Assembly: GCA_028685755.1 (NCBI GenBank)
Contig: JAQUDJ010000009.1
Coordinates: 36,549-49,673, forward strand
From: Eubacteriales bacterium
Lineage (GTDB): Bacteria > Bacillota > Clostridia > Saccharofermentanales > UBA5734
Direction: 5' to 3'
Length of the DNA stretch: 13,125 nucleotides
The number at the start of each line of letters is the position of its first letter. Position 1 is the first letter of the stretch. The position numbers and the translations under genes were made by a program. Below, piece by piece: positions 1 to 12,449 of the stretch. A model generated the notes under the pieces. That model made no database searches. It was not told the DNA's origin and was given only the letters and a program-made list of their open reading frames with translations.

Positions 1-24
1 GTCTTGATGGAGCGAACAGCATAA

Positions 25-64
25 CCGGCCGCAACTTATCTAGTGGCCGGATTTTTTATTTTTT
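25..64 (+). terminator. Probable rho-independent terminator of an upstream gene that lies outside or at the edge of the window
   Basis: All-GC stem CCGGCC (25-30) pairs with GGCCGG (45-50). It can extend by g31-t44 and c32-g43. It is followed by ATTTTTTATTTTTT (51-64). An in-frame TAA at 22-24 could be the end of the upstream CDS. Confidence 0.55.
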
Positions 65-113
65 CGGCCATCTGCCAATAACACAATATTAAGATGTATG
101 GAGAAAGTTTATT

Positions 114-632
114 ATGAAAAATGTAAGATTAAGTCTCGCTCTTGTCCTTATAGCCCTACTCGTCGCCGGTATCGGTTCTGCTGCTTTAAGTGTCATTAGC
201 CTCGACCGATCAGTCGAAGCTGGCGTTGTCCGCTCAGATGTTGATGCGGATGTGGCTGTCCAATTTGCTGCCCTCGGCAGTTATGGCGACAATGGTTTTG
301 TCAGTGTAGATGCCACCACCGGTGAAATTGCCTTTGATTTGAAAAAGGCTGTTTCCAATTCAGCTAATGGCGGCTGGAACACCGATGCCCATTTTGTTGT
401 CGGCAGTGCTGCTAACGGTGTCTTTGAAGTCGCCAATAATTCGGACGTTGCAGTAAAAGTTTCTTTAACGGGCGCAACGGGTGGTTTGACTCTAAAAGAT
501 TCATCAGGTGCAGCGGCTGGCTCAAGCGTCATCGAAGCAGGTAGCGCAGACTCATTCTACTTTGATATTGCGACAGCCGGTGTCAACAAAGCGACTGCAA
601 TCGGCGGAACGCTTGCAGTGCGGAATGCCTAA
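114..632 (+). CDS. Small secreted protein; putative TasA/DUF1102-like fibre subunit and substrate of the adjacent SipW-type peptidase
   Basis: GGAGA at 100-104 lies 9 nt upstream of the ATG. The N-terminus has K/R residues, then a hydrophobic h-region (LALVLIALLVAGIG) and small residues SAA. A conserved LSVISLDRSVEAGVVRSD segment follows. The mature part is rich in A/G/V/S/D with no Cys and looks beta-rich. It sits immediately upstream of a SipW-type signal peptidase. Family assignment is inference from motif and context only. Confidence 0.7.
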   Translation: MKNVRLSLALVLIALLVAGIGSAALSVISLDRSVEAGVVRSDVDADVAVQFAALGSYGDNGFVSVDATTGEIAFDLKKAVSNSANGGWNTDAHFVVGSAANGVFEVANNSDVAVKVSLTGATGGLTLKDSSGAAAGSSVIEAGSADSFYFDIATAGVNKATAIGGTLAVRNA

Positions 633-658: not shown

Positions 659-1762
659 ATGAAGAACATCCTGACTGGCGTGCTCATTGGTTTGATCATC
701 ATCTTGGCCGGATTCGGCCTCGTGGCGGCGACCAATGGCACGCCTTTCTTGACTTATGTGTATTCGGACAGCATGTCCCCCTTGATTGATGTCAACGATG
801 CTTTTTTAATCTGGCCAACAGGTCATTACGAAATCGGCGATGTCATCACCTATCGACCCAAGACATTACCTGCAACGTATATCACGCATCGAATTGTCGG
901 AAAGAATGAACGCGGCTTTCTGACTCAAGGCGATCATGCTCCTTATCAAGACCAACGTGTCGGGGAACCGCCGATCAGCGATGCGCAAATTGCCGGCGAA
1001 GTACTTTCTTTATATGGCCAACCACTAATTATTCCGCAATTAGGCACCCTCGCCGCAGGGATTGGTCAAGGTCTTGGCCCTTCGTCATCGTGGGTTGCGA
1101 TACTCCTCATCGCCGCGGGGATCATCAGCCTGATTTGGAATCGAATCATACCCTCTAAAAAGAAAAAAACGCGACTGCGCTGGCGCTTGCGCCATCTTTA
1201 CCGTCTGGTTGGCGTGATTGCAACGGTGTTAATTTTGACTAGCGTATTGGTTCTTTCTCAGGTGACTCAAGTTCGTTATCTAGTCAGTGAAAAGCCCAGT
1301 CAAGTTGTCAATCGCGTCCTGTTGAATCACCCGGGCGAACTTTCAATGACCGTGCGCAACCAGGGACTCTGGCCAGTGTGGCTCGAAGTTGCTGGAACGG
1401 GTGACACCGTTGCGACAAAAGCGAGCCGGATTGTCTGGCCGTACCAAGAGACAAAGGTCACGTTAATGGTTCCTGCTGAATCATCGACTGGCTGGTACCA
1501 ACGCTATCTACACATCAATCAATACCCGATACTTTTCCCAGAGGGGATACTCCGTTTGTTTTACCAGTTTTCGCCGGTCGCAGCATTAGTGGCCACCCTT
1601 GCAGCTTTCTGGCTCTGGTATCGAGCTTGGATCGGCTTAATCAGTCGCATTCACGGCCTTGAAGGCTGGATACCACTGAAAACCTTCCGCGATAAAATAG
1701 CGGCTCGACGTTGGCGTAATCTTCGCCGTCGGCTGATCAGCAAAAAGGAGCGTACGCTATAA
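659..1762 (+). CDS. Signal peptidase I, SipW/ER/archaeal type (S26B-like), with a ~200-aa C-terminal extension (two extra TM helices plus an ecto domain)
   Basis: There is an N-terminal TM helix. SDSMSP carries the candidate catalytic Ser (S38, nt 770-772). ITHRIV carries the candidate catalytic His (H77, nt 887-889), which is the Ser/His type rather than the Ser/Lys LepB type. TQGDHAPYQD resembles the conserved GDxN...D box. A second TM spans aa ~143-164. A poly-basic loop (KKKKTRLRWRLRHLYR) follows, then TM3, a ~100-aa predicted extracytoplasmic segment, TM4 and a basic tail. AGGA at 649-652 is the RBS. Confidence 0.85.
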   Translation: MKNILTGVLIGLIIILAGFGLVAATNGTPFLTYVYSDSMSPLIDVNDAFLIWPTGHYEIGDVITYRPKTLPATYITHRIVGKNERGFLTQGDHAPYQDQRVGEPPISDAQIAGEVLSLYGQPLIIPQLGTLAAGIGQGLGPSSSWVAILLIAAGIISLIWNRIIPSKKKKTRLRWRLRHLYRLVGVIATVLILTSVLVLSQVTQVRYLVSEKPSQVVNRVLLNHPGELSMTVRNQGLWPVWLEVAGTGDTVATKASRIVWPYQETKVTLMVPAESSTGWYQRYLHINQYPILFPEGILRLFYQFSPVAALVATLAAFWLWYRAWIGLISRIHGLEGWIPLKTFRDKIAARRWRNLRRRLISKKERTL

Positions 1763-2298
1763 TGCGTTTAAGAATCTCATTGATTTTGATCATATTAGGC
1801 CTCCTCGTCGCGCTTCTGCCATTGACGACAAGCGGTGCTATCAGCTTACTGACCGTTGACCGCTCGATTGGTGGCAACCTCACGCTTGCCGATTTACCGG
1901 GTCTAGTCGAATTACAAAACTTCGACAATCAGACATATCAGCTCACGAGTAGTTACAAAACGGTCGGGACTATAATTAACAACGCATCCCAAACCATGAA
2001 AATTAAAATGACGACAACGCTTGACGACAGTCAGATTACCAACACAAAATGGCAAATCAATGTGCGCGCAAACGGCGGCACCGCATTAACCTTTTCGCGA
2101 AGTGATAATTTGACCCAAACCACTAAGGAATTTCAAATCACTGCTGGATCCTCAAAAAGGATTGAAGCCAAAGAGAATTCAAGTGTTAATGGACAGTCTA
2201 TCGCTACCTATTCCTTTGCGATCATCAGTGCAGATGGTACTTATACCCAGACCTTAGCGGATAGTTCTAGCAATCCAATCCGACATATATTTAAATAA
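1762..2298 (+). CDS. Second small secreted protein, N-terminally paralogous to 114-632; putative minor, initiator or anchor subunit
   Basis: The ATG overlaps the peptidase TAA (TAATG at 1760-1764). AGGAG lies at 1746-1750. The signal peptide is MRLRISLILIILGLLVALLPLTTSGA, followed by ISLLTVDRSIGGNLTLAD, which aligns with the post-signal segment of the first ORF. The mature part is rich in T/S/N/Q and has no Cys. Confidence 0.7.
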   Translation: MRLRISLILIILGLLVALLPLTTSGAISLLTVDRSIGGNLTLADLPGLVELQNFDNQTYQLTSSYKTVGTIINNASQTMKIKMTTTLDDSQITNTKWQINVRANGGTALTFSRSDNLTQTTKEFQITAGSSKRIEAKENSSVNGQSIATYSFAIISADGTYTQTLADSSSNPIRHIFK

Positions 2299-2359: not shown

Positions 2360-3862
2360 ATGAAAATCATGAAGACAAAACAAATCATTCAAAAATCAAG
2401 GACGGGCTTGATTCTAATCTTACTTATTGCGAGTTTGCTTTGGACTGGCTTCATGAATTTCCCCACAAATCCGACCGCACTTGAATCAACCGTCCCAGCG
2501 GATGAAATTCTGACCTACGCACCTGAATACGACATTCAAGCAGGGCGGTCATTAATGATTTGGAAACAGGGAACCAGCTTGGAGCAGGGGCGCACGGCAT
2601 ATTTCTATGCGGCCGATCCAATTCTCACCCTAACACCTTCTTTTTCATTGACAGGCCAGGTTGCGAGTGAGTTGTCTGGAACGGTCCAAATACAAACATA
2701 TTTGCAGGCTGTTGATGACAACCATCAGCTCTATTGGAGCTATCCGCTAATCAATTCGGTTGCGCAACCTGTTAAACTGACTCATGCAATCGAAGGCCAA
2801 AACGATTTGCTTCAATTATCGGCCCGACCTTTTGCGATTCGGGTAAGCCAAGCCTTTGCCCAATTACAAGCTATCAACACCGAGCTTGACCTGACCAATG
2901 CCAATTTCGAGCTCGTTGTGCGGTCTTTTGTGAATCTGGATGGGCAATCCGATGGTCAGGTTATCGCCAAGCAGTTTATCAATGAATTGCCGATTTCCTT
3001 ACAAACGATTGGCTTTACACTACCTAAAACAGCAGATAATTTGTCGCAAATTATCCTGAAAAGCGCGCCGGTCAAGCCAACTGGATTAGCAGCTTGGACC
3101 ACCACCCCGGAAAAAATCGCTGCGCTCTTCTTAGATGGTCTATTGCTGGCGGCACTCATCTTATCGATGGTCATCAACCGGCCACGTCAGAAGGACCGGG
3201 CATTAGATCATCAGAAATTTCGAGAATGGATTACGGAGGGCAGTGTCAGTCTGCATAACAGCTCGCCGATCCAAGTCAATTCCTTAGAAGGCCTTGTTGA
3301 CTTAGCGATTGATCTCGACAAACGCGTGTTATACGACCCATCACGCCAAAAATATTTTGTCCCAGATGAAGGGATGCTCTATCTATATGACCCAAATCAG
3401 CTCAATCCATCACAGATCAAGCGCACACAACTCGGGCGGCTCCTGCTCGATGCAGGTGTTATCAGCCGTGAGCAGCTTGAGACGGCACTGTTTTATCATC
3501 AGCGGTTAAATGTACCGTTAGGTGAATCACTGATTGCATTGGGCTTTATCGAAGAAAAAAACCTGTACCAAACGTTGGCTGCCCAGGCCAAACTGCTGTA
3601 TCTCGACGCCGAGCCAGAAGATTTCCGGGTCGATACTGACGCGCTGGCGCGTCTTACAGTCAAGCAGGCGCAAATCTTACGTGTCTTGCCACTTCAACGG
3701 CAACAAGACGAAAAATTACGACTGATTTGCAGTGATCCCGGGCGCATCAAAATAAAAAATGCCCTTGAAGAAATTATCGAATCTGAAATTGAACTCGTAA
3801 TTGTCAATCCATCTGTTTTGCAGGTGGCACTCGATAAAATAAATGCCAAAACCCAAAGCTAA
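2360..3862 (+). CDS. Bitopic membrane protein: N-terminal TM, ~215-aa ectodomain, second TM, and a cytoplasmic T2SSE_N/MshEN-like domain
   Basis: GAGGA at 2350-2354 lies 5 nt before the ATG. TM1 is aa ~15-35 and TM2 is aa ~252-272 (IAALFLDGLLLAALILSMVIN), followed by RPRQKDR (positive-inside). The C-terminal ~140 aa matches the GspE/MshE N-terminal domain pattern: tandem LGxxLLxxG..L...L..Q motifs, then LPLQRQQDEKLRLICSDP, resembling the usual 'lPl...g..l.va.sdP'. The N-terminal two-TM module resembles, from memory, the DUF5305 family often found beside SipW-type peptidases; this is unverified. Confidence 0.8.
   Translation: MKIMKTKQIIQKSRTGLILILLIASLLWTGFMNFPTNPTALESTVPADEILTYAPEYDIQAGRSLMIWKQGTSLEQGRTAYFYAADPILTLTPSFSLTGQVASELSGTVQIQTYLQAVDDNHQLYWSYPLINSVAQPVKLTHAIEGQNDLLQLSARPFAIRVSQAFAQLQAINTELDLTNANFELVVRSFVNLDGQSDGQVIAKQFINELPISLQTIGFTLPKTADNLSQIILKSAPVKPTGLAAWTTTPEKIAALFLDGLLLAALILSMVINRPRQKDRALDHQKFREWITEGSVSLHNSSPIQVNSLEGLVDLAIDLDKRVLYDPSRQKYFVPDEGMLYLYDPNQLNPSQIKRTQLGRLLLDAGVISREQLETALFYHQRLNVPLGESLIALGFIEEKNLYQTLAAQAKLLYLDAEPEDFRVDTDALARLTVKQAQILRVLPLQRQQDEKLRLICSDPGRIKIKNALEEIIESEIELVIVNPSVLQVALDKINAKTQS
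3428..3586 (+). other. Tandem MshEN-type 24-aa motifs with a 5-aa spacer (candidate c-di-GMP binding site) inside CDS 2360-3862
   Basis: Motif 1 (aa 357-380) is QLGRLLLDAGVISREQLETALFYH. The spacer is QRLNV. Motif 2 (aa 386-409) is PLGESLIALGFIEEKNLYQTLAAQ. The published consensus is RLGxx[LVI][LVI]xxG[LVI][LVI]xxxxLxxxLxxQ. Deviations: the leading Arg is Gln in motif 1 and Pro in motif 2; the final Q of motif 1 is H; and one F sits at an LVI position. Confidence 0.65.
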
Positions 3863-5055
3863 TCTACTTCGACTTCAACGGGAATACTTGGGATTGGCAC
3901 GAGAATATCAACGTCAGCAGCGTAATCAACACCAGGCATTTGGAAACCAAACATCTGGTAAAAATCTTCCCAATAGCCGGTGATGTCGCAGTATTCTGTG
4001 ACATTTTCGGTTCTTACATTCGGCCAGATGTTATCAACTGCCTGTTGAATGGCAGGCTCCATTTCCCAGTCATCGACGCGGAGTCGGCCGGCTTCATCCA
4101 CGATCGGATTTTCAACAAACAACTTATCCTGATAAAGGCGAGCAATTTGTTCAATGCAGCCCTCGTGTGTTCCGGCGGCTTTCATAACCTTGTACAGAAT
4201 TGAAATATAAAGCGGGACAACCGGAATGGCGGCACTCGCTTGAGTCACAAGGGCCTTGTTCACGGAAATATATGCGGTGACATGTTGCATGTCACGGGTC
4301 ATTTTTTGCGCAGTCGCATGAAGGTGTTCTTTGGCGCGGCCAATCGAACCCTTGAGGTAGATCGGATGCGTCAGTTCTGGTCCAAGGTAGGAGTAGGCCA
4401 TGGTTACTGTGTGATCAGCCAAACAACCAGCTTGATCAAGGGCAACAACCCAATCCTGCCAATCTTCACCCCCCATGACTTTCACAGTAGCTTCGATTTC
4501 TTCAGGAGACGCCGCGGAAATGCTGACCATCGAAATGGAGTTATCCTTGAGATCGATTGAACGATTGGTATATTCACCATCCGTTGATTTGAGTACCGAA
4601 TTGTAAATCGTACCGTCAGCCATCGTCCGCCGAGGGGAAGCCAAGCTATAGACGATTAGGTCTACTTGACCGAGATCTTGCTTGATCAGATTGATCACTT
4701 GATCTTTGACTTCTTGGGAGAACGCATCGCCATTGATTGTTTTGGCGTAAAGGCCTTCTTGGTTGGCGCGTTGTTCAAATGCTGCTGAATTATACCAGCC
4801 AGCAGATGCTGTACGATTACCAGAGGCCGGTTTATCAAAGATAACGCCGATTGTTGCAGCGCCACAGGAAAAGGCGGAAGTAATGCGGGAGGCTAAACCA
4901 TAGCCAGTCGAAGCACCGAGGACGAGGACTTTTTTTGGGCCATCGACTTTAGGTTGCGCGAGAACATAATCGATCTGGCGGTTAACATTGGCGGCACAAC
5001 CGACCGGGTGTGCGGTGATGCAGATAAAGCCACGGGTTTTTGGTTCAACAATCAT
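3859..5055 (-). CDS. fabV: FabV-type enoyl-[acyl-carrier-protein] reductase / trans-2-enoyl-CoA reductase (NADH), Ter family
   Basis: The 398-aa protein starts MIVEPKTRGFICITAHPVGC, with the nucleotide-binding motif VLGASTGYGLASRI. The Y-x8-K catalytic spacing is present in IYLKGSIGRAKEHL. Length and both termini are typical of the FabV/Ter family. GGAGGA (plus-strand tcctcc at 5064-5069) lies 8 nt upstream of the ATG. Confidence 0.9.
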   Translation of the reverse strand: MIVEPKTRGFICITAHPVGCAANVNRQIDYVLAQPKVDGPKKVLVLGASTGYGLASRITSAFSCGAATIGVIFDKPASGNRTASAGWYNSAAFEQRANQEGLYAKTINGDAFSQEVKDQVINLIKQDLGQVDLIVYSLASPRRTMADGTIYNSVLKSTDGEYTNRSIDLKDNSISMVSISAASPEEIEATVKVMGGEDWQDWVVALDQAGCLADHTVTMAYSYLGPELTHPIYLKGSIGRAKEHLHATAQKMTRDMQHVTAYISVNKALVTQASAAIPVVPLYISILYKVMKAAGTHEGCIEQIARLYQDKLFVENPIVDEAGRLRVDDWEMEPAIQQAVDNIWPNVRTENVTEYCDITGYWEDFYQMFGFQMPGVDYAADVDILVPIPSIPVEVEVD

Positions 5056-5246: not shown

Positions 5247-6206
5247 ATGACTAGGCGCAACCCATTGCGAAACCTGCCAGCTTTAGCCAAAGGTAAATTA
5301 TCAGCACTTTGGATAATGCTCCGCGATAAACTGCGCCGCGATTGGCCTGCGGTTCTGTTTTTGACCCCCAGTATGATTGGCACCGGATTGTTTTTCTTTA
5401 TTCCCTTTATATTAGTCATCGGCTACTCGCTCGTTGATAATCCTGTCATGATGCGTTTTGTTTTTTTGCGCAACTATGTCGATCTCCTCACAAATCAGGC
5501 CTATTTACAGGCAGCAGGCAACACCTTGCTTTTTTCACTGATTAGCTTGCCACTTGTCGTGGTTATGTCCTTATTGCTCGCGATGCTGCTGAACGGAAAA
5601 CTCAAAGCCAAAAGTGCTTTGCGGTCACTTTTTCTATCGCCCCTGCTTGTGCCAGTAGCGTCGGTTGTGCTTGTTTGGCAAGTTGTGTTTAGTTATCATG
5701 GCGCTTTAAATTCAACACTATCCGGCTGGACGTGGCTCGTTGACTCGGGTTGGCTACCGGTCGATTGGCTCAAAAGCAGCAATGCGCGATACGTGATCAT
5801 TGGACTCTATTTGTGGAAAAATCTTGGCTATAACATGGTGCTTTTTCTCGCTGCATTAAACAATGTCCCGTCCCACTTAACTGATTCGGCGCGGGTCGAT
5901 GGCGCAACTGCTTGGCAACGTTTTATGAGCATAACGCTGCGATTCATCACGCCGACCTTGTTATTTACGACGATCATATCCTTTATCAACTCATTCAAAG
6001 TTTTCCGAGAAACTTATTTGTTAGCGGGTGATTACCCCTACGATGTGCTCTATATGCTCCAACATTTTATGAACAACATGTTCCGCTCACTCGATTATCA
6101 GAAATTATCCGCTGCGGCGATTGTCATGGCCCTTGTCATGATTGGGATCATAGGCGCTTTGTTTATCGTTGAAACCCGATCGGGCAAAGATCTGGAGGAC
6201 AACTGA
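5247..6206 (+). CDS. Carbohydrate (CUT1-type) ABC transporter permease, MalF/UgpA-like
   Basis: The N-terminus WPAVLFLTPSMIGTGLFFFIPF is typical of this family. There are six predicted TM segments. The EAA loop is DSARVDGATAWQRFMSITLRFITP. The start is uncertain because the weak GGAG lies 13 nt upstream; an internal Met at aa 24 is an alternative. Confidence 0.88.
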   Translation: MTRRNPLRNLPALAKGKLSALWIMLRDKLRRDWPAVLFLTPSMIGTGLFFFIPFILVIGYSLVDNPVMMRFVFLRNYVDLLTNQAYLQAAGNTLLFSLISLPLVVVMSLLLAMLLNGKLKAKSALRSLFLSPLLVPVASVVLVWQVVFSYHGALNSTLSGWTWLVDSGWLPVDWLKSSNARYVIIGLYLWKNLGYNMVLFLAALNNVPSHLTDSARVDGATAWQRFMSITLRFITPTLLFTTIISFINSFKVFRETYLLAGDYPYDVLYMLQHFMNNMFRSLDYQKLSAAAIVMALVMIGIIGALFIVETRSGKDLEDN

Positions 6207-7129
6207 TGCATCCCGCAAACAAGTGGCGCCGCGCCAAACGCGAAACACCAATCTATCTCAAAACCGGCTTAATCCTAATCCTCGCACTGATCTTTGTTTT
6301 TCCAATCGTGATGACCATTCTCAATTCATTCATGTCATCGGATGAGATTGTCGCCAATTACGGCATGCTTTTCGACAAAAACACAGATCCCTGGGCGATG
6401 CCCACCGCGCCTGAATTGCCCTGGATTTCGCCATCTGCCCACTTTAAACTGATCCCAGACCTCGTATCCGTGCAACAATATGTTGAGATTCTTTTTAAAA
6501 GTACAGATTATTTGATTAAATTCTGGAACTCCGTTTTTCTGGTGCTTCCGATAGTCGCCGGGCAGATATTTATAGGTGCGCTTGCGGCTTATGGGTTCAC
6601 TCGCTTCCGTGGTCGGATTGCCCAACTGATTTTCTTTTCGTACATCATATTGATGTTGATGCCCTTTCAGGTCACACTCGTGCCCAATTATTTAGTTGCA
6701 GAATGGTTTGGTCTGCTTGACAACCCACTATCGATCATCCTGCCAGGCGTTTTCTCGACATTTAGTGTCTTTTTGCTGACCAAATACATGCGCCGGATCC
6801 CACGTGATTATTTAGAAGTTGCTCAACTCGATGGTGCCGGCCATTGGGCCATTTTCACCCAAATCATGCTGCCGATGTGTAAAACCGCCCTCTATTCCTT
6901 GGCGGTACTCGTGTTTATTGATTACTGGAACATGGTTGAGCAACCGATAATTTTCTTATCCGATCCGCTCAAGCATCCGTTGTCTGTCTTTCTCGTTAAA
7001 GTCAATGAAGGCGATATTGGTCTAGCCTTTGCGGCATCCACACTTTACATGATACCGGCGCTCCTCATGTTCTTTCATGGTGAACAGTACCTCGTTGAGG
7101 GCATTACACATTCTGGTTTGAAAGGATAA
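6206..7129 (+). CDS. Carbohydrate (CUT1-type) ABC transporter permease, MalG/UgpE-like
   Basis: The start overlaps the upstream stop by 1 nt (TGATG). GGAGGA lies at 6194-6199. The EAA loop is EVAQLDGAGHWAIFTQIMLPMCKTAL, and the N-terminus FVFPIVMTILNSF is typical. The first extracytoplasmic loop is enlarged (aa ~45-105). Confidence 0.88.
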   Translation: MHPANKWRRAKRETPIYLKTGLILILALIFVFPIVMTILNSFMSSDEIVANYGMLFDKNTDPWAMPTAPELPWISPSAHFKLIPDLVSVQQYVEILFKSTDYLIKFWNSVFLVLPIVAGQIFIGALAAYGFTRFRGRIAQLIFFSYIILMLMPFQVTLVPNYLVAEWFGLLDNPLSIILPGVFSTFSVFLLTKYMRRIPRDYLEVAQLDGAGHWAIFTQIMLPMCKTALYSLAVLVFIDYWNMVEQPIIFLSDPLKHPLSVFLVKVNEGDIGLAFAASTLYMIPALLMFFHGEQYLVEGITHSGLKG

Positions 7130-7132
7130 CCC

Positions 7133-8719
7133 ATGGACGATTATACACCGACAAAAGCAAGCCCCCGCACGCGCCTTGTCAGGCGTGCTACGGTCATTTT
7201 TTTTAGTGGCATGGCGGCGCTGACCTTGTTCTCCAATACAATTGTCAATTACTCCTTGCCGCGCGTACAGGTTAAAAATTTTGAATCAGGGATCATCTCG
7301 CGCCAAATTCAGACCGACGGTACAGTTGCCGCCTCATTACAACACACGATCAATTTCGGTGCGGCGCGGACTGTCGAAAAGGTCAATGTCGAAGTGGGGT
7401 CACCGGTCTTAGTTGGGGATGTGCTCGCGACCTTGAAAGCAACCGATGGATTAGAACTTTTGGAGATGGAAAAGGCATATGAAAATGCCCAGATCGATCT
7501 CGCGCGCATGAAAGAAACGGCGGCGACGACATCCGTCCCAGCCGCGGAAAAAGCAATCCAAGCCGCGGAAAAAGCGATCGCGGTCGCGTTGAAAACAATC
7601 ACTCGGAATGAGGAAGCTATTGTTGACGCAAAAGAAGCATTAGATACGGCTTGGGATGATCTTAAACAAGCGGCTGAGGATGCTGAAGACGATTTAAATG
7701 ATGCCCAAGACCTTCAAGAAGAAAAAGAAGATCTTTTAGTGGCCGCCCAACTGGCTCTGGACACAACAACAGAAACGCCGGGTACCACTGCATACATCGC
7801 GCTACAAGACGCAGTGACAGCTGCTGAACTTGCCCTTGAAGATGCGCAAGATTCAGTCGATTCATTCGAAAAAATCTTAGCTGATGCAAAAAAGGCTCGA
7901 GATCGAGGTCCGACAAGCTTTGAAGATAGTGTCGTTTTAGCCGAAGAAGCGTTAGTTGCTGCAAAAGAAGCACACATAGAAACTGTAGCTGCGCTTGCCC
8001 AAGCTCAACTTGATCTCACTGCGGCCAAGAAAACAGACGCACAGACCGCGAAAGATCGCACACGTGAGATCACCAAAGCAGAGAATAATCTGACCATTCA
8101 GAAGAAGAAACTTGATCAATTCAAATCAACGCAAGATGTCACTGAAATCAAGGCTGATTATGCTGGTCGCATTTCCAAATTGACGCTATCTGCTGGTGGC
8201 GTCATTAATCCGGCTGAAGCGATTGTGACGATTGATGCTGCCGACGCTAAATATGAATTGCGCGCCACACTGCCAATCGAGCAGGCAAAGGTACTTGTCA
8301 TCGGCGATCGTGCCGATGTGATGATGGGTAATATGGGCTGGGCGCAAGCTGTCTTGCGCGAAGTCCGTGAAGACAAAGATCAGCCAGGGATCGTTAAGCA
8401 GCTAATCTTTGATATTGATGGCGAGGTTACACTCGGCCAACAGGTTACGTTAAGTATTTATAAAATGAGTCGGCAGTACGATATCATCGTGCCCAATGCC
8501 GCGGTTCGTCAAGACGCGAATGGCAGCTTTATCCTCGTGATGAAGCAAAAAAATGGTCCACTCGGCAGCCGTTTCACTTTAGAGCGAGTCAGTGCAACCG
8601 TGCTCGAATCAGATAGCACGCGTGCTGCAGTCAGTGCAACAATTGACTATGGAACACCTCTCGTGACAGCCGCCAATAAGCCGGTAGAAGCCGGCAGTCG
8701 CGTTTTGCCAACCAAATGA
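7133..8719 (+). CDS. HlyD-family membrane-fusion protein (periplasmic adaptor subunit) with an exceptionally long coiled-coil hairpin
   Basis: AGGA lies at 7123-7126. There is an N-terminal TM (VIFFSGMAALTLFSNTIV). The lipoyl half-motifs are VEVGSPVLVGDVLATL and ADYAGRISKLTLSAGGVINPAEAIVTI. About 240 aa (aa ~100-345) are A/E/D/K/L-rich and heptad-like. The C-terminal beta-barrel/MP-type segments include IIVPNAAVRQDANGSFILVMK and LVTAANKPVEAGSRV. Confidence 0.85.
   Translation: MDDYTPTKASPRTRLVRRATVIFFSGMAALTLFSNTIVNYSLPRVQVKNFESGIISRQIQTDGTVAASLQHTINFGAARTVEKVNVEVGSPVLVGDVLATLKATDGLELLEMEKAYENAQIDLARMKETAATTSVPAAEKAIQAAEKAIAVALKTITRNEEAIVDAKEALDTAWDDLKQAAEDAEDDLNDAQDLQEEKEDLLVAAQLALDTTTETPGTTAYIALQDAVTAAELALEDAQDSVDSFEKILADAKKARDRGPTSFEDSVVLAEEALVAAKEAHIETVAALAQAQLDLTAAKKTDAQTAKDRTREITKAENNLTIQKKKLDQFKSTQDVTEIKADYAGRISKLTLSAGGVINPAEAIVTIDAADAKYELRATLPIEQAKVLVIGDRADVMMGNMGWAQAVLREVREDKDQPGIVKQLIFDIDGEVTLGQQVTLSIYKMSRQYDIIVPNAAVRQDANGSFILVMKQKNGPLGSRFTLERVSATVLESDSTRAAVSATIDYGTPLVTAANKPVEAGSRVLPTK
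7541..7582 (+). repeat. Tandem 2 x 21-nt direct repeat inside the MFP coiled coil (AAEKAIQ / AAEKAIA)
   Basis: gccgcggaaaaagcaatccaa (7541-7561) is followed by gccgcggaaaaagcgatcgcg (7562-7582). The first 18 nt differ at one position. The period of 21 nt equals one heptad. Confidence 0.8.
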
Positions 8720-10083
8720 AACGACTTGCGCTGCTCGCAGCTGTGCTTTGGACAACGACCGCCTTGTTGACCCAGGCGCTTGTGTTTACTGCACAGGGCC
8801 TCCTTTCAGAAACCACGCGCGACAATCAGGTCAAGACTTTTGCCGTCTATTTAGCGAAACCGGTGCCAAGCAATTCGGGTTCAACAGCCGGTTTTATTGC
8901 TGGATCAACAGCAGCCAAAGTGGCTGCTGCAGGCTTTACGAGCGATAGTGGGATCGGTTTGCAAGCGCGGGCAGTCGAAAGCATGCGACAATCTCTCAAG
9001 AAAGCGATTGCTGAACAACAAGTGCAAATAGTCGATGCATTTGCGGGCTTTTCTGAACAAGTGCTGACACGCGTTTCAATGGACAATCAAAGCAACGGCA
9101 CGATCACGGTGAATCTCACCGGAATCGGTGGGCGATTTGCCGATTTTCGCCAATTGCAGATTTTAAGTGGTTCGTTTATCAATGAACAAGATTGGAATGA
9201 ACGGTCAATCGTTCTCGATGAAACCGCGGCTTGGCAATTGTTTGGGGCGATCGATATTGCGGGTATGACGTTATCGATCCAGAACCACAATTACACCGTC
9301 AATGGAGTCGTGCGAATCCCTCAAAACGATCAGAATTTACTCGCTATCGCTGAGAAACCGCAAGCCTTTGTCAGTTATGCGGCGCTACACGCGCTAGATC
9401 CCCAATCGAGCATCACGGCATATGAGGTCAGACTGCCTGAACCAGTACCCGGTATGGGTCAAAGTTATTTTAATGATGCACTCAATGCCGGAGGGCTCAA
9501 CCCTAATGATGCGATCATCGTTCTGCACGAACAGCGTTTAACCTTCACCCACTTACTGGCAGATTGGGCAAAGATCGGGCGCCGAGCCATACAAGATTCG
9601 ACCATTGTCTTGCCCTGGTGGGAAAATGCGAACCGGGCTGCCGCTGATTGGGCTAGTGTGCTCATCGCCATATCAGGCATGGCGTTGCTTTTGCTGGGTT
9701 TAAGTGTTTCCAACTTGACTTGGCGGGAACAAAAAGTTCGACCAGCTCGTCCAATATGTTGGACACAAATCGGACAATTGAGCGCCGCCAGTCTGTTCGG
9801 CCTCGTGCTAGCGATGATTTTGATCCATGTGCACGGCGAGCTTGTTCCAAGTGGTTGGTCTTGGTTTTTCACCTTGCTTGGGATTTTACTTTTGCCTGCA
9901 GCACTCGTTACTGGTTTCGGAGGATTTCAGAAACTTCGAATCGTGTTACCAGATAAGACGCGTAGCCTTCAGGTTTTGCGATCAACCAGTCAATCTATAA
10001 CCGAAAAGACCCGTATTTACATACTTGTTTGGATCAAATGGCTGAAGTCGCACTGGCCAGCCACAAAGGAGACCCCCTTATGA
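8716..10083 (+). CDS. MacB-periplasmic-domain / FtsX-like ABC permease homologue with a divergent C-terminal TM bundle
   Basis: An ATGA overlap joins it to the MFP stop. It has an N-terminal TM and an A/G/S-rich linker. The MacB_PCD-like core is ITVNLTGIGGRFADFRQLQILSGSFINEQDWNERSIVLDETAAWQLFGAIDIAGMTLSIQNHNYTVNGVVR. Three C-terminal TM helices follow in FtsX-like topology, but the usual ER.rEIG..(K/R)alGA loop is not recognisable. No SD precedes the start, so translational coupling is presumed. Confidence 0.6.
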   Translation: MKRLALLAAVLWTTTALLTQALVFTAQGLLSETTRDNQVKTFAVYLAKPVPSNSGSTAGFIAGSTAAKVAAAGFTSDSGIGLQARAVESMRQSLKKAIAEQQVQIVDAFAGFSEQVLTRVSMDNQSNGTITVNLTGIGGRFADFRQLQILSGSFINEQDWNERSIVLDETAAWQLFGAIDIAGMTLSIQNHNYTVNGVVRIPQNDQNLLAIAEKPQAFVSYAALHALDPQSSITAYEVRLPEPVPGMGQSYFNDALNAGGLNPNDAIIVLHEQRLTFTHLLADWAKIGRRAIQDSTIVLPWWENANRAAADWASVLIAISGMALLLLGLSVSNLTWREQKVRPARPICWTQIGQLSAASLFGLVLAMILIHVHGELVPSGWSWFFTLLGILLLPAALVTGFGGFQKLRIVLPDKTRSLQVLRSTSQSITEKTRIYILVWIKWLKSHWPATKETPL

Positions 10084-12449
10084 ACACCCGTATGATTCAA
10101 AACCATTCCGTTATCGGTGAACCGAAAATGAAACGGCAACCGCTCCGATCATTAGCGCTGTTGCTAGTGATTACCCTGACCTTTGCGCTCCTGCTCCCTC
10201 TGACCGCGTGTGCCAAAAAACCAGCACTTGATCTTGGACTTGATCAAGTCGCAATCTATGATGCAGCTGAATATACGATTGGCGAACAATTTAACTATGT
10301 GCAAAATATGATTTGGTCCAATAACGAGATCATCGCCATGGCCATGGATGCGCAAGGCATGACGAGTTTAGTGCGGCTTAGCACCGACGGCCAGATACTC
10401 GGCAACATTTCACTAGCCCAGATTAAGAATTTACCAACCACCGAAAATATGGGCTCATCGGCATCGCTCGATGGTTTTTTTGCAGGACCCAATGGTAGCC
10501 TGATCGTGACGGTCACAGATTATAGCGACCCCGCAGCAACTGTGCGCACGCTTTACCAAATCGATTCAAATGGCACGATACTCAAGAGCTATCCAATCTT
10601 TACCGCAAAAAATGATGGCAGTACGACTGACTATGTGCAGAATTTAATTGTCGATGCACAAGGTCAAGTTTTACTTGTCTTTGGCACTCGCGTGGAATTA
10701 CTTGACACAAACGGCCAAAAAATCGGCGAATATAAATTAGACGGTCCCTATGTCGCGCTTGCGATGTTTATGCCCAATGGCCATCTCAGCCTAAGCTATT
10801 ACGAAAATGAAGGCGGCATGAGTTCAATCGAAGTTGATTTAAAAACTGGCACAAAAATTGCGGACATCAGCGTCTTGTCACAGTTTTTTAACACGCAGCC
10901 CCAACTCGGGAGCGATGGTCAGTATTATTTGAACGGTTATCAATATCTCTCCCGCTATGATGCTGCAACGAATGAAGTCGTCAAAATCATGAGCTGGCTC
11001 GACTTTGATCTCAATCGCAACAATCTCAGTTATTACTGGGTTGCTGCTCCGGATGGCAGCTTTTATTTCAGTGAATTCATTTACCCAGAAAGCAGCTTGC
11101 CAGACCCCAACACGGGAATGTACCCCAATCCAACCTTTAAGCTCGTCAAATTAACAAAGTCTGCTGACCAAACGGCGGCTAAAAAGACAACTATATCCAT
11201 CGGGGCATTCTGGATCAATGAAAGCCTGCGCAAAGCAATTATCGAATTTAGAAAAACCCACCCGGATGTTCGATTTACCATTTACGATTATTCAGATGGA
11301 ATTGATTACTCTAAAACGACAGCCTTTGATGATGCCATCGCGAGGATTAATGCGGATATTATCGCTGGAAAAATGCCAGATATGATGGTCACCAACTCAC
11401 TGCCGTGGAAAAACTACGCGAGTAAAGGCTTGTTTGATGACCTTGGCGCGCGGATGGACAAAGACAAGGATTTTGACCAAAGCCTCTTTTTGACGAATCT
11501 AATCGATGCGCAAAAGCTCAATGGCAAACTCTATTCACTCAGCAGTACAGCAGCACTAACCGGCATCATCGCATCACGCAATGTGGTTGGCGATCGGACA
11601 AGCTGGACCGTGCAAGACTTTCAAAATATCGTTGATCAGCAACCTGATCAGAAAAATGTCTTCTATCAAATGCCTGGCGAATCCATTCTCAGCATGCTTT
11701 TGATGGGCAATCTCGACGCTTTCATTGATAAGGAAGCCGGCAAGGCGAATTTTGACAGCCCTGAATTTATCCAATTACTAGAATTTGCCCAAAAATATGG
11801 TGTGCCACAAGATCAAATGGTCTATCAGGAAGGCGATGGCATGAATGCCGGCGAATATATTCCACCGGTCATTCAAACAACTTATATCAGTCGTTTTGAA
11901 GACTACGCAATGAATGTTCAACAGTTCCAGGGCAATGCCGTGATCCTCGGTTATCCATCACCGAAGCAAACGGGACCGATGCTACAAGTCAGCGCCCCTT
12001 TGGCGGTTGCTGCCAATAGTCGCAACAAAGAATTGATCTGGGAATTCATCAAATTTACGCTCAGCGAAGACATGCAGGATCAGGCAATCAAAAACTATGA
12101 GGGTTTTCCACTCTTGCGAGCAAGTCTTGAAAAAGCTGGAGCTCAAGCGATTATCGACACACAAAAGCAGTGGGAAGAACAGCAGAAACAAGAACAACAA
12201 GCAGGTGTTCAACCCATGGATGAATTGGCAAAAAGTTCAATCTGGTACGGGGTCTCACGTGTGACGCAGGCCGATGTCGACTACGTCATCGGCATATTGA
12301 ACCAAGCTGATACCGTACTCAGTTATGATGAGAAAGCCAACCAATTGATTTATGAAGAATCCACACCATTCTTTGCAGGTGACAAAACAGCAGCGGAGAC
12401 TGCTGCATCGATTCAAAGCCGCCTCAAAGCCTATATTGGCGAACAATAA
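10080..12449 (+). CDS. Large lipoprotein: N-terminal beta-propeller-like repeat module fused to a family-1 extracellular solute-binding domain (carbohydrate ABC SBP)
   Basis: The preferred start is the ATG at 10080 (ATGA overlap with the upstream stop; AAGGAG at 10066-10071, 8 nt upstream). The ORF-track start at 10029 lacks an RBS. The ATG at 10128 (MKRQPLRSLALLLVITLTFALLLPLTAC) is an alternative. The lipobox is L-T-A-C, with Cys at nt 10209-10211. The C-terminal half has SBP_bac_1-like features: DVRFTIYDY, GKMPDMMV, ASKGLFDDLG, LNGKLYSLS. Confidence 0.85.
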   Translation: MNTRMIQNHSVIGEPKMKRQPLRSLALLLVITLTFALLLPLTACAKKPALDLGLDQVAIYDAAEYTIGEQFNYVQNMIWSNNEIIAMAMDAQGMTSLVRLSTDGQILGNISLAQIKNLPTTENMGSSASLDGFFAGPNGSLIVTVTDYSDPAATVRTLYQIDSNGTILKSYPIFTAKNDGSTTDYVQNLIVDAQGQVLLVFGTRVELLDTNGQKIGEYKLDGPYVALAMFMPNGHLSLSYYENEGGMSSIEVDLKTGTKIADISVLSQFFNTQPQLGSDGQYYLNGYQYLSRYDAATNEVVKIMSWLDFDLNRNNLSYYWVAAPDGSFYFSEFIYPESSLPDPNTGMYPNPTFKLVKLTKSADQTAAKKTTISIGAFWINESLRKAIIEFRKTHPDVRFTIYDYSDGIDYSKTTAFDDAIARINADIIAGKMPDMMVTNSLPWKNYASKGLFDDLGARMDKDKDFDQSLFLTNLIDAQKLNGKLYSLSSTAALTGIIASRNVVGDRTSWTVQDFQNIVDQQPDQKNVFYQMPGESILSMLLMGNLDAFIDKEAGKANFDSPEFIQLLEFAQKYGVPQDQMVYQEGDGMNAGEYIPPVIQTTYISRFEDYAMNVQQFQGNAVILGYPSPKQTGPMLQVSAPLAVAANSRNKELIWEFIKFTLSEDMQDQAIKNYEGFPLLRASLEKAGAQAIIDTQKQWEEQQKQEQQAGVQPMDELAKSSIWYGVSRVTQADVDYVIGILNQADTVLSYDEKANQLIYEESTPFFAGDKTAAETAASIQSRLKAYIGEQ

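Follow-up and report, generated by a model that had tools for sequence, protein, structure and literature searches.

A predicted c-di-GMP-binding MshEN domain on a DUF5305 membrane protein encoded with a signal peptidase and small secreted proteins in Clostridia

The window analysed here, a stretch of 13,125 nucleotides from contig JAQUDJ010000009.1 of a Eubacteriales bacterium (assembly GCA_028685755.1), carries near its start four genes on the forward strand: fibA, a signal peptidase gene, fibB, and the gene for a 500-residue membrane protein that is the subject of this report. Positions 2360-3862 (+) form this last gene as a single open reading frame (ORF). An earlier note on this DNA had placed a domain of the MshEN type, a receptor for cyclic di-GMP (c-di-GMP), at 3428-3844, which corresponds to residues 357-495. 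The protein is built of two parts. Its N-terminal 345 residues are a DUF5305/TafG-type protein, and its residues 357-499 form a complete MshEN domain.

The DUF5305/TafG-type module (2360..3388, +) consists of a first transmembrane helix, an ectodomain, a second transmembrane helix and a cytoplasmic alpha/beta module, as assigned from Pfam family PF17231 (DUF5305) and the topology of an AlphaFold2 (AF2) model. PF17231 matched residues 156-343 with 87.9 bits (E 8e-25), above its gathering threshold (GA) of 29. The AF2 model, built on 64 homologs, has a mean predicted local distance difference test score (pLDDT) of 89.2. It places the transmembrane helices at residues 4-33 and 250-272, on either side of an Ig/Fn3-like beta-sandwich ectodomain (residues 49-234), and after them the small alpha/beta module (276-343) and a disordered linker (349-354) that leads into MshEN. 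The two-transmembrane ectodomain protein described in the earlier note is therefore recovered by the model, and the order of its elements agrees with the published description of DUF5305 (bioRxiv 10.64898/2026.01.04.697558). TafG/DUF5305 proteins sit in haloarchaeal Tafi and in AbpX/TasA-superfamily fibre loci, and DUF5305 has been proposed to be an accessory subunit of a dedicated signal peptidase I (SPase I), to which it is sometimes fused (PMC11821415, PMC12337348, bioRxiv 10.64898/2026.01.04.697558). Like the window protein, the members from these loci combine PF17231, two transmembrane helices, a beta-sandwich ectodomain and a cytoplasmic alpha/beta module, and their genes always lie next to those of a SipW/TafD-type signal peptidase and of small secreted subunits (PMC11821415, bioRxiv 10.64898/2026.01.04.697558). 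The described members, however, stop after the alpha/beta module, whereas the window protein adds MshEN.

Both subdomains of MshEN are present. The first, MshEN_N (3428..3586, +), is a four-helix bundle with the 53-residue motif predicted to bind c-di-GMP, assigned by the NCBIfam model NF053729 ('c-di-GMP_motif') and by the AF2 model. NF053729 is matched end to end at residues 357-409 with 54 bits against a cut-off of 38 (E 1e-14), and the bundle at residues 358-409 is made of helices 358-364, 370-383, 387-393 and 399-409. The second, the T2SSE_N1-like alpha/beta subdomain MshEN_C (3587..3856, +), occupies residues 418-499 of the model, where pLDDT lies between 87 and 97 across residues 360-500. 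The Pfam search proposed in the earlier note gave a match of PF05157 (MshEN) to residues 418-496, with 37.4 bits against a GA of 23.1. The comparison with residues 1-145 of Vibrio cholerae MshE, also proposed there, gave a match well outside what chance would produce: a phmmer search of the PDB retrieved this structure (5HTL) with E 4e-13, together with Thermus thermophilus PilF (6F8L, E 1e-16). By structure, Foldseek aligned the AF2 model to MshE with c-di-GMP (5HTL) with E 1.9e-9, a TM-score of 0.80, a root-mean-square deviation of 2.7 Å and 34% identity over 139 columns. Holo PilF GSPII-B (8PDK, TM-score 0.79) was also among the best PDB neighbours, and both alignments cover the two subdomains. 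No ATPase domain was found on the 500-residue protein with Pfam, with NCBIfam or in the AF2 model, so that the reading of the region as MshEN without an attached ATPase holds.

Like MshE (5HTL) and PilF GSPII-B/C (8PDK), the window domain joins a four-helix N-terminal and an alpha/beta C-terminal subdomain (TM-scores 0.79-0.80) and has tandem 24-residue motifs with a 5-residue spacer. In MshE and PilF, however, MshEN is found at the N-terminus of an ATPase of type II secretion systems (T2SS) or type IV pili, whereas in the window it is the C-terminal tail of a protein with two transmembrane helices. Escherichia coli NfrB, rightly named in the earlier note as a precedent for MshEN on other machines, also carries a C-terminal MshEN on an inner-membrane protein without an ATPase, and governs the export of an extracellular polymer (PMC8669469). 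Among the NCBIfam models, those of NfrB align locally to residues 354-497 of the window protein, and those of PilB and EpsG likewise give local alignments to its MshEN region. NfrB is a glycosyltransferase activated by c-di-GMP from a dedicated local diguanylate cyclase (DGC), DgcJ (PMC8669469). Its output is a polysaccharide, whereas the window protein has a DUF5305 ectodomain, a signal peptidase partner and a putative protein fibre as product, and its host belongs to a Gram-positive Clostridia lineage, unlike E. coli.

The two motifs are present exactly as the earlier note had quoted them: motif 1, QLGRLLLDAGVISREQLETALFYH, 24 residues (nt 3428-3499, aa 357-380, +); the 5-residue spacer QRLNV (nt 3500-3514, +); and motif 2, PLGESLIALGFIEEKNLYQTLAAQ, again 24 residues (nt 3515-3586, aa 386-409, +). 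The form (R/K/L)LGxx(L/V/I)(L/V/I)xxG(L/V/I)(L/V/I)xxxxLxxxLxxQ, taken twice with a 5-residue spacer, was compared with them. The spacing and all hydrophobic and glycine positions are present, and the motifs deviate from the canonical form at three polar positions, Q357, H380 and P386. Relative to MshE and PilF, the window domain, in which binding is predicted, thus has Gln at position 1 of motif 1, His at the end of motif 1 and Pro at position 1 of motif 2. The Gln and the Pro had been correctly listed before; the third deviation, His380 in place of the terminal Gln of motif 1, had been missed.

Conservation was measured as majority-residue frequency in 64 sequences whose overall identity is only 30-40%. 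The 53-residue motif is the best-conserved segment (0.81), followed by the alpha/beta module (0.71), MshEN_C (0.56) and the ectodomain (0.49). No or almost no variation is seen at the LG dipeptides, the turn Gly, the Leu-x3-Leu pairs and the motif-2 Gln. A residue census of 61 sequences gave Gln at motif 1 position 1 in 52; Arg or Lys at motif 2 position 1 in 51 and Pro in 5; and, at the last position of motif 1, Gln in 50 and His in 9. All three states of the window protein, Q, H and P, recur in P0002, its closest relative (57% identity). Ligand contacts in MshE come mainly from Leu clusters and from backbone amides of the Gly and the next residue, guanine is recognised through backbone amides of the conserved LG-x positions, and altering charged residues, including Arg9, shifts affinity less than 5-fold (PMC5013675). 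PilF GSPII-B, with Lys and Leu at the two position-1 sites, binds at 6 nM; GSPII-C, with Pro at motif II position 1, binds c-di-GMP about as well as MshE; and the published consensus has been widened to (R/K/L)LG (PMC11731258). The warning in the earlier note that the Arg at the first position of both motifs is lost was correct as to Q357 and P386, but was given too much weight, since Gln is the subfamily consensus, Pro has a precedent in PilF GSPII-C and Arg is not required (PMC11731258). Non-binding MshEN domains, namely XpsE and PilF GSPII-A, carry degenerate motifs (PMC5013675, PMC12002112). Judged from its sequence, we consider it likely that the window MshEN binds c-di-GMP. If binding were confirmed, Gln at motif 1 position 1, as the subfamily consensus, would extend the accepted MshEN motif.

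The gene is the last of a cassette, and its partners upstream on the same strand are the following. fibA (114..632, +; locus tag PHC86_05185) encodes a 172-residue secreted protein with a signal peptide ending GSAALS, a candidate major fibre subunit. It is followed by a SipW/archaeal-type signal peptidase I of 367 residues (659..1762, +), with the catalytic domain at residues 2-116 and a long membrane-spanning C-terminal extension resembling TafD; TIGR02228 matches it with 61.1 bits against a cut-off of 51.85. The start of fibB (1762..2298, +) overlaps the peptidase stop codon, and its product, a secreted protein of 178 residues, is a candidate minor subunit or tip. No Pfam family was matched by fibA or fibB, nor by 9 fibA homologs. 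The AF2 model of fibA (pLDDT 68.6) is beta-rich, with a disordered N-terminal segment at residues 18-43 after the signal. Its best Foldseek match was the archaeal bundling pilin AbpA (7UEG), at a non-significant E of 0.026 and a probability of 0.82, and the 0406 thread 7PNB ranked fifth; a fibA profile searched against the PDB reached AbpX (9SJ2) at only E 1.6, also non-significant. The top matches of this profile search were designed repeat proteins and were rejected as spurious. The operon had been called SipW/TasA-like; the SipW-type peptidase and the small secreted proteins are indeed there, but the likeness to TasA, or the label 'TasA-like fibre', rests mainly on gene context and is weakly supported. 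In some related loci the fibA-like domain is held in larger proteins of 262-406 residues (L021:16620-17804 (-), L022:17821-19041 (-) and L009:12350-13138 (+)), and L004 has three tandem fibA paralogs at 5764-9276; these are candidates for anchor, tip or variant fibre subunits.

A scan of one genome per GTDB species yielded 52 loci, in which cassette genes were identified by ORF calling and phmmer. The cassette, in the order fibA, peptidase, fibB, DUF5305-MshEN (occasionally fibA, fibB, peptidase), is found in about 25 species-level metagenome-assembled genomes (MAGs) of Bacillota, with hosts that include Oscillospiraceae, Herbinix, Mobilitalea, Lachnoclostridium, Peptococcaceae, Erysipelotrichaceae and Mageeibacillus. 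fibA is the first cassette gene in the approximately 25 loci, and fibB is kept between the peptidase and DUF5305 genes in most. Every cassette locus has the peptidase gene next to the DUF5305 gene, and so do the haloarchaeal loci L043, L046 and L049, where the pairs are without MshEN. For the 500-residue protein itself and for fibA, exact look-ups returned no record. An exhaustive HMMER search with the DUF5305 part alone found 455 proteins among 1.84 billion cluster representatives; 42 of the best 150 carry MshEN, and the other 108 are plain proteins of 320-450 residues that end after the alpha/beta module, from which we take the MshEN fusion to be a clade-specific acquisition. A literature search found no paper combining DUF5305 with MshEN, and the architecture is not listed in the part consulted of the architecture table of Wang et al. 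2016 (Supplementary Table 4). In DUF5305-MshEN a receptor domain of a known kind is joined to a new output partner, and the fusion proteins form a conserved, unstudied subfamily.

Most fusion proteins are about 650 residues long and have an extra conserved, mostly helical C-terminal domain of about 150-170 residues (homologs P0003-P0066, alignment A1 columns ~550-744), which the window protein, P0002 and P0039 lack. This domain of the long homologs had no Pfam match, and its reading as a degenerate MshEN_N repeat was rejected (hhalign probability 2%). Among the other long DUF5305 proteins checked, none carried an alternative c-di-GMP domain such as PilZ. One of 575 residues, P0169, has DUF5305 without MshEN and ends in a helix-hairpin-helix domain (HHH_5), an odd cytoplasmic add-on for the partner of a membrane peptidase. 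A separate set of paralogs, of 400-450 residues, was seen in L029-L039 (e.g. L029:9821-11164 and L037:10001-11203). They are without the ectodomain and keep the alpha/beta module, MshEN and the C-terminal extension; their MshEN motif is perfect, and they have two closely spaced transmembrane helices or none. There is no adjacent signal peptidase, the conserved context being near radical-SAM-like and aldo/keto-reductase-like genes, and some paralogs of this type share a MAG with the full cassette (Mobilitalea).

The leader of the operon holds an RNA element. A c-di-GMP-II-like riboswitch aptamer, interrupted by the window edge, is represented at positions 1..39 (+) by its 3' part (model positions 47-85). 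In the closest relative (L055/L056) the element sits in the 300-nt fibA leader, where L055:9846-9930 matches RF01786 with 39.6 bits (E 3.5e-7 when 501 nt are searched and 4e-5 for 56 kb). Its conserved core is intact. The outer P1 is weak, and for this reason the L055 element, unlike RF01786 members at GA, scores below the Rfam threshold of 53.5. A covariance model that we built from the L055 element (CM R1) matched window positions 1-39 with 23.3 bits (E 0.002), flagged as 5'-truncated, and retrieved a full second copy directly upstream of fibA in an Oscillospiraceae locus (L002:7618-7687, 49.3 bits, E 2.5e-11). Window positions 1-125 are 72% identical to L055:9892-10012, with the highest identity across aptamer and terminator. 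Between the L055 and L002 elements 4 of 14 pairs are changed on both sides, and 89% of cells are paired, compared with 25-46% in slid controls. The core nucleotides and the double-sided pair changes support a real structured relative of c-di-GMP-II riboswitches.

An intrinsic terminator follows at 25..64 (+), an 8-bp hairpin (25-32 with 43-50) and a U-run, with a folding energy of -15.7 kcal/mol and z -4.0. In the window, L055 and L002 alike, the aptamer 3' strand CCGRCC (CCGGCC in the window) is at the same time the 5' arm of the terminator hairpin, with the U-run after it. This overlap suggests a c-di-GMP-dependent anti-termination switch, whose direction (ON) we infer. c-di-GMP-II riboswitches (RF01786) include an ON switch upstream of pilA1 in Clostridioides difficile; like it, the L055 and L002 leaders have the conserved core and stems, a terminator over the aptamer 3' strand and a position upstream of a surface-filament operon. 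A riboswitch of the other class, c-di-GMP-I (RF01051), precedes fibA by about 120 nt in Mageeibacillus sp. UBA5734 (L018:1806-1904, +; 55.5 bits against a GA of 35), so that two riboswitch classes front the same operon type in different lineages. At gathering threshold, Rfam gave nothing in the window and only this c-di-GMP-I element in 22 related loci. A permissive Rfam scan of window positions 1-400 returned only noise, because the aptamer is cut off at the window edge. No more class II-like elements were found in 36 loci with a further model (CM R2), and a pattern scan of metagenomes with the conserved aptamer 3' segment had no match.

In 7 loci, Pfam-verified genes of the GGDEF, EAL or HD-GYP type are found no more than 10 kb from the cassette, and in four of these the distance is within about 330 bp. 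They encode PAS-GGDEF (L002/L003), REC-GGDEF-Hpt (L004), GGDEF-EAL in a divergent, adjacent gene (L025), and REC-GGDEF, GAF-GGDEF and PAS-GGDEF-HD proteins (L021, L022). In L016:6573-7673 (-) and L023:4277-5377 (-), a divergent gene about 110 bp from fibA encodes a fusion of GGDEF with GerE, a LuxR-type helix-turn-helix, a possible c-di-GMP-linked transcription factor for the cassette. GGDEF genes directly adjoin the cassette in L016, L023, L025 and L021. No c-di-GMP enzyme genes were seen in 11 control loci of similar genomes (L029-L039), and the enrichment near the cassette relative to these controls is only suggestive. DGC and HD-GYP genes have been remarked near bacterial abpX loci, with no mention of a receptor or of MshEN (bioRxiv 10.64898/2026.01.04.697558). 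Riboswitches and DGC neighbours place the operon in a c-di-GMP regulon. The riboswitch part in the window, the riboswitches of relatives and the neighbouring c-di-GMP enzymes together give support, independent of the MshEN domain, for the idea in the earlier note of second-messenger gating of fibre biogenesis.

In LapD-LapG of Pseudomonas fluorescens, c-di-GMP controls from the inside out a periplasmic protease whose substrate is the adhesin LapA. LapD resembles the window protein in having two transmembrane helices, an extracytoplasmic domain, a cytoplasmic c-di-GMP receptor (predicted in our case) and a paired extracytoplasmic protease on which the fate of an adhesin or fibre at the surface depends; it is a working analogy only. 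The two systems are unrelated in sequence and fold: LapD has HAMP and a degenerate GGDEF-EAL, whereas the receptor here is MshEN, and LapG is a cysteine protease that removes an adhesin, whereas the protease here is a signal peptidase on which production of the putative fibre would depend. Neither HAMP, nor a degenerate GGDEF-EAL, nor a LapG-binding periplasmic domain was found on the window protein with Pfam and NCBIfam. We lean, by a modest preference, towards DUF5305-MshEN being a transmembrane c-di-GMP effector that exerts LapD-like inside-out control of the processing or assembly of fibre subunits. c-di-GMP probably controls fibre production at two levels, through the MshEN receptor and through the riboswitch.

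The following sequence of events can be envisaged. Ligand binding reorients the two MshEN subdomains relative to each other (PMC11731258). In the window protein, such a reorientation upon c-di-GMP binding would be passed to the conserved alpha/beta module, through the two transmembrane helices and on to the beta-sandwich ectodomain. The change in the ectodomain would reach the extracytoplasmic domains of the peptidase, the presumed target, which would be switched on or permitted to act. The licensed peptidase would then process and release, or hand over, fibA and fibB, and these would assemble into an extracellular fibre. At the level of transcription, the c-di-GMP-II-like riboswitch with its overlapping terminator would make transcription of the operon require c-di-GMP too, and the dependence of both transcription and post-translational activation on the same messenger would amount to a coherent feed-forward gate. 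This full proposal, in which MshEN on DUF5305 allosterically licenses a dedicated signal peptidase across the membrane and the riboswitch completes a two-layer gate in a clade of anaerobic Firmicutes, is put forward tentatively.

Several observations weigh against this interpretation. At three positions (Q357, H380 and P386) the window protein departs from the canonical motif. In MshE the terminal Gln of motif 1, which is replaced by H380 in the window protein, forms hydrogen bonds with the backbone of the ligand, and His at this position occurs in non-binding GSPII-A (PMC12002112). In the reconstruction that restored binding by GSPII-A, the change of H33 to Gln was made along with other substitutions, and Ser at motif II position 1 abolished binding by the reconstructed domain (PMC12002112), so that substitutions at these motif positions are not always neutral. 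Part of the conservation of the motif could be structural, as the conserved hydrophobic positions also build the helix bundle. The role of DUF5305 as a peptidase accessory is a proposal from gene context and fusions (PMC11821415, bioRxiv 10.64898/2026.01.04.697558). Pfam, profile searches against the PDB and Foldseek gave no significant placement of fibA or fibB in the TasA superfamily. As for the riboswitch, the class II match stays below the Rfam GA (39.6 against 53.5 bits), only its 3' 39 nt lie in the window, and about 21 of the 25 cassette loci gave no riboswitch in Rfam and covariance model scans.

The motif deviations bear directly on an alternative that we regard as unlikely, namely that MshEN is a nucleotide-free docking module that tethers a cytoplasmic partner to the peptidase complex. 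MshEN_C is a known interaction surface in T2SS ATPases (Wang et al. 2016), and docking of this kind would be comparable to that of the N1 subdomain of GspE on GspL. Q357, H380 and P386 in the window protein, and the existence of the non-binders XpsE and PilF GSPII-A (PMC5013675, PMC12002112), would fit such a module. These non-binders, however, lose the LG, Gly and Leu positions that are invariant here, in what is the best-conserved segment of the protein, and the NF053729 score exceeds the curated cut-off for the c-di-GMP motif. Furthermore, the cassette has no conserved gene that could encode such a partner, and the riboswitch and DGC linkage puts the operon in the c-di-GMP regulon.

It is also possible, if rather improbable, that c-di-GMP is bound and the output is something other than peptidase gating: control of fibre anchoring or release by an ectodomain that serves as membrane anchor or assembly platform, recruitment of a specific DGC for local signalling, or an outside-in relay of fibre status. 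An Ig/Fn3-like ectodomain could accept a donor strand, and the paralogs of L029-L039, ectodomain-less or soluble and away from peptidases, imply that the module can work without an adjacent peptidase. NfrB-type MshEN effectors act with a dedicated local DGC (PMC8669469), and GGDEF genes stand right beside the cassette in L016, L023, L025 and L021. On the other hand, from haloarchaea to Clostridia the DUF5305 gene strictly adjoins that of the peptidase, and some bacteria have the two fused, which points to a peptidase-centred role (PMC11821415; bioRxiv 10.64898/2026.01.04.697558). That the altered first and last motif positions have retargeted the domain to another cyclic dinucleotide, such as 3'3'-cyclic GMP-AMP (cGAMP), is very improbable: MshEN does bind cGAMP weakly (KD ~0.33 mM; PMC5013675) and the Q, H and P substitutions are at ligand-facing positions, but the LG-x positions whose backbone amides recognise guanine are intact (PMC5013675), the leader riboswitches of relatives belong to c-di-GMP classes I and II, and most subfamily members have the canonical R/K and Q where the window protein has P and H.

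Inside-out control of the signal peptidase by c-di-GMP would have some wider consequences. To our knowledge, most c-di-GMP effectors of Gram-positive anaerobes are riboswitches, and virtually no protein receptor that acts on matrix fibres is known. DUF5305-MshEN is an obvious candidate to fill this gap, and through the fusion the uncharacterised DUF5305 'peptidase accessory' family acquires a regulatory function that can be tested. If the proposal is true, the fusion would be an inside-out receptor not described before. It would also be the first effector through which c-di-GMP acts post-translationally on TasA-superfamily or donor-strand fibres, and its partner would be the first signal peptidase complex regulated by a second messenger. 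With only four genes, the cassette is compact enough that the control of signal-peptide cleavage and of fibre assembly by a second messenger could be reconstituted.

The rest of the window holds genes of other kinds. A FabV enoyl-ACP reductase gene (3859-5055, -; NF043048, 606 bits) is convergent with the DUF5305-MshEN gene, and the 3' ends of the two share 4 nt. We found nothing resembling a terminator between them, and the same synteny occurs in L001. Beyond it, at 5247-12449 (+), lies an unusual transporter cluster, for which no ATPase gene is visible within the window. The cluster is conserved with L001 and comprises two BPD_transp_1 permeases, a 528-residue HlyD-like coiled-coil protein, a membrane protein with a MacB_PCD domain and an 806-residue lipoprotein with a C-terminal SBP_bac_1 domain.

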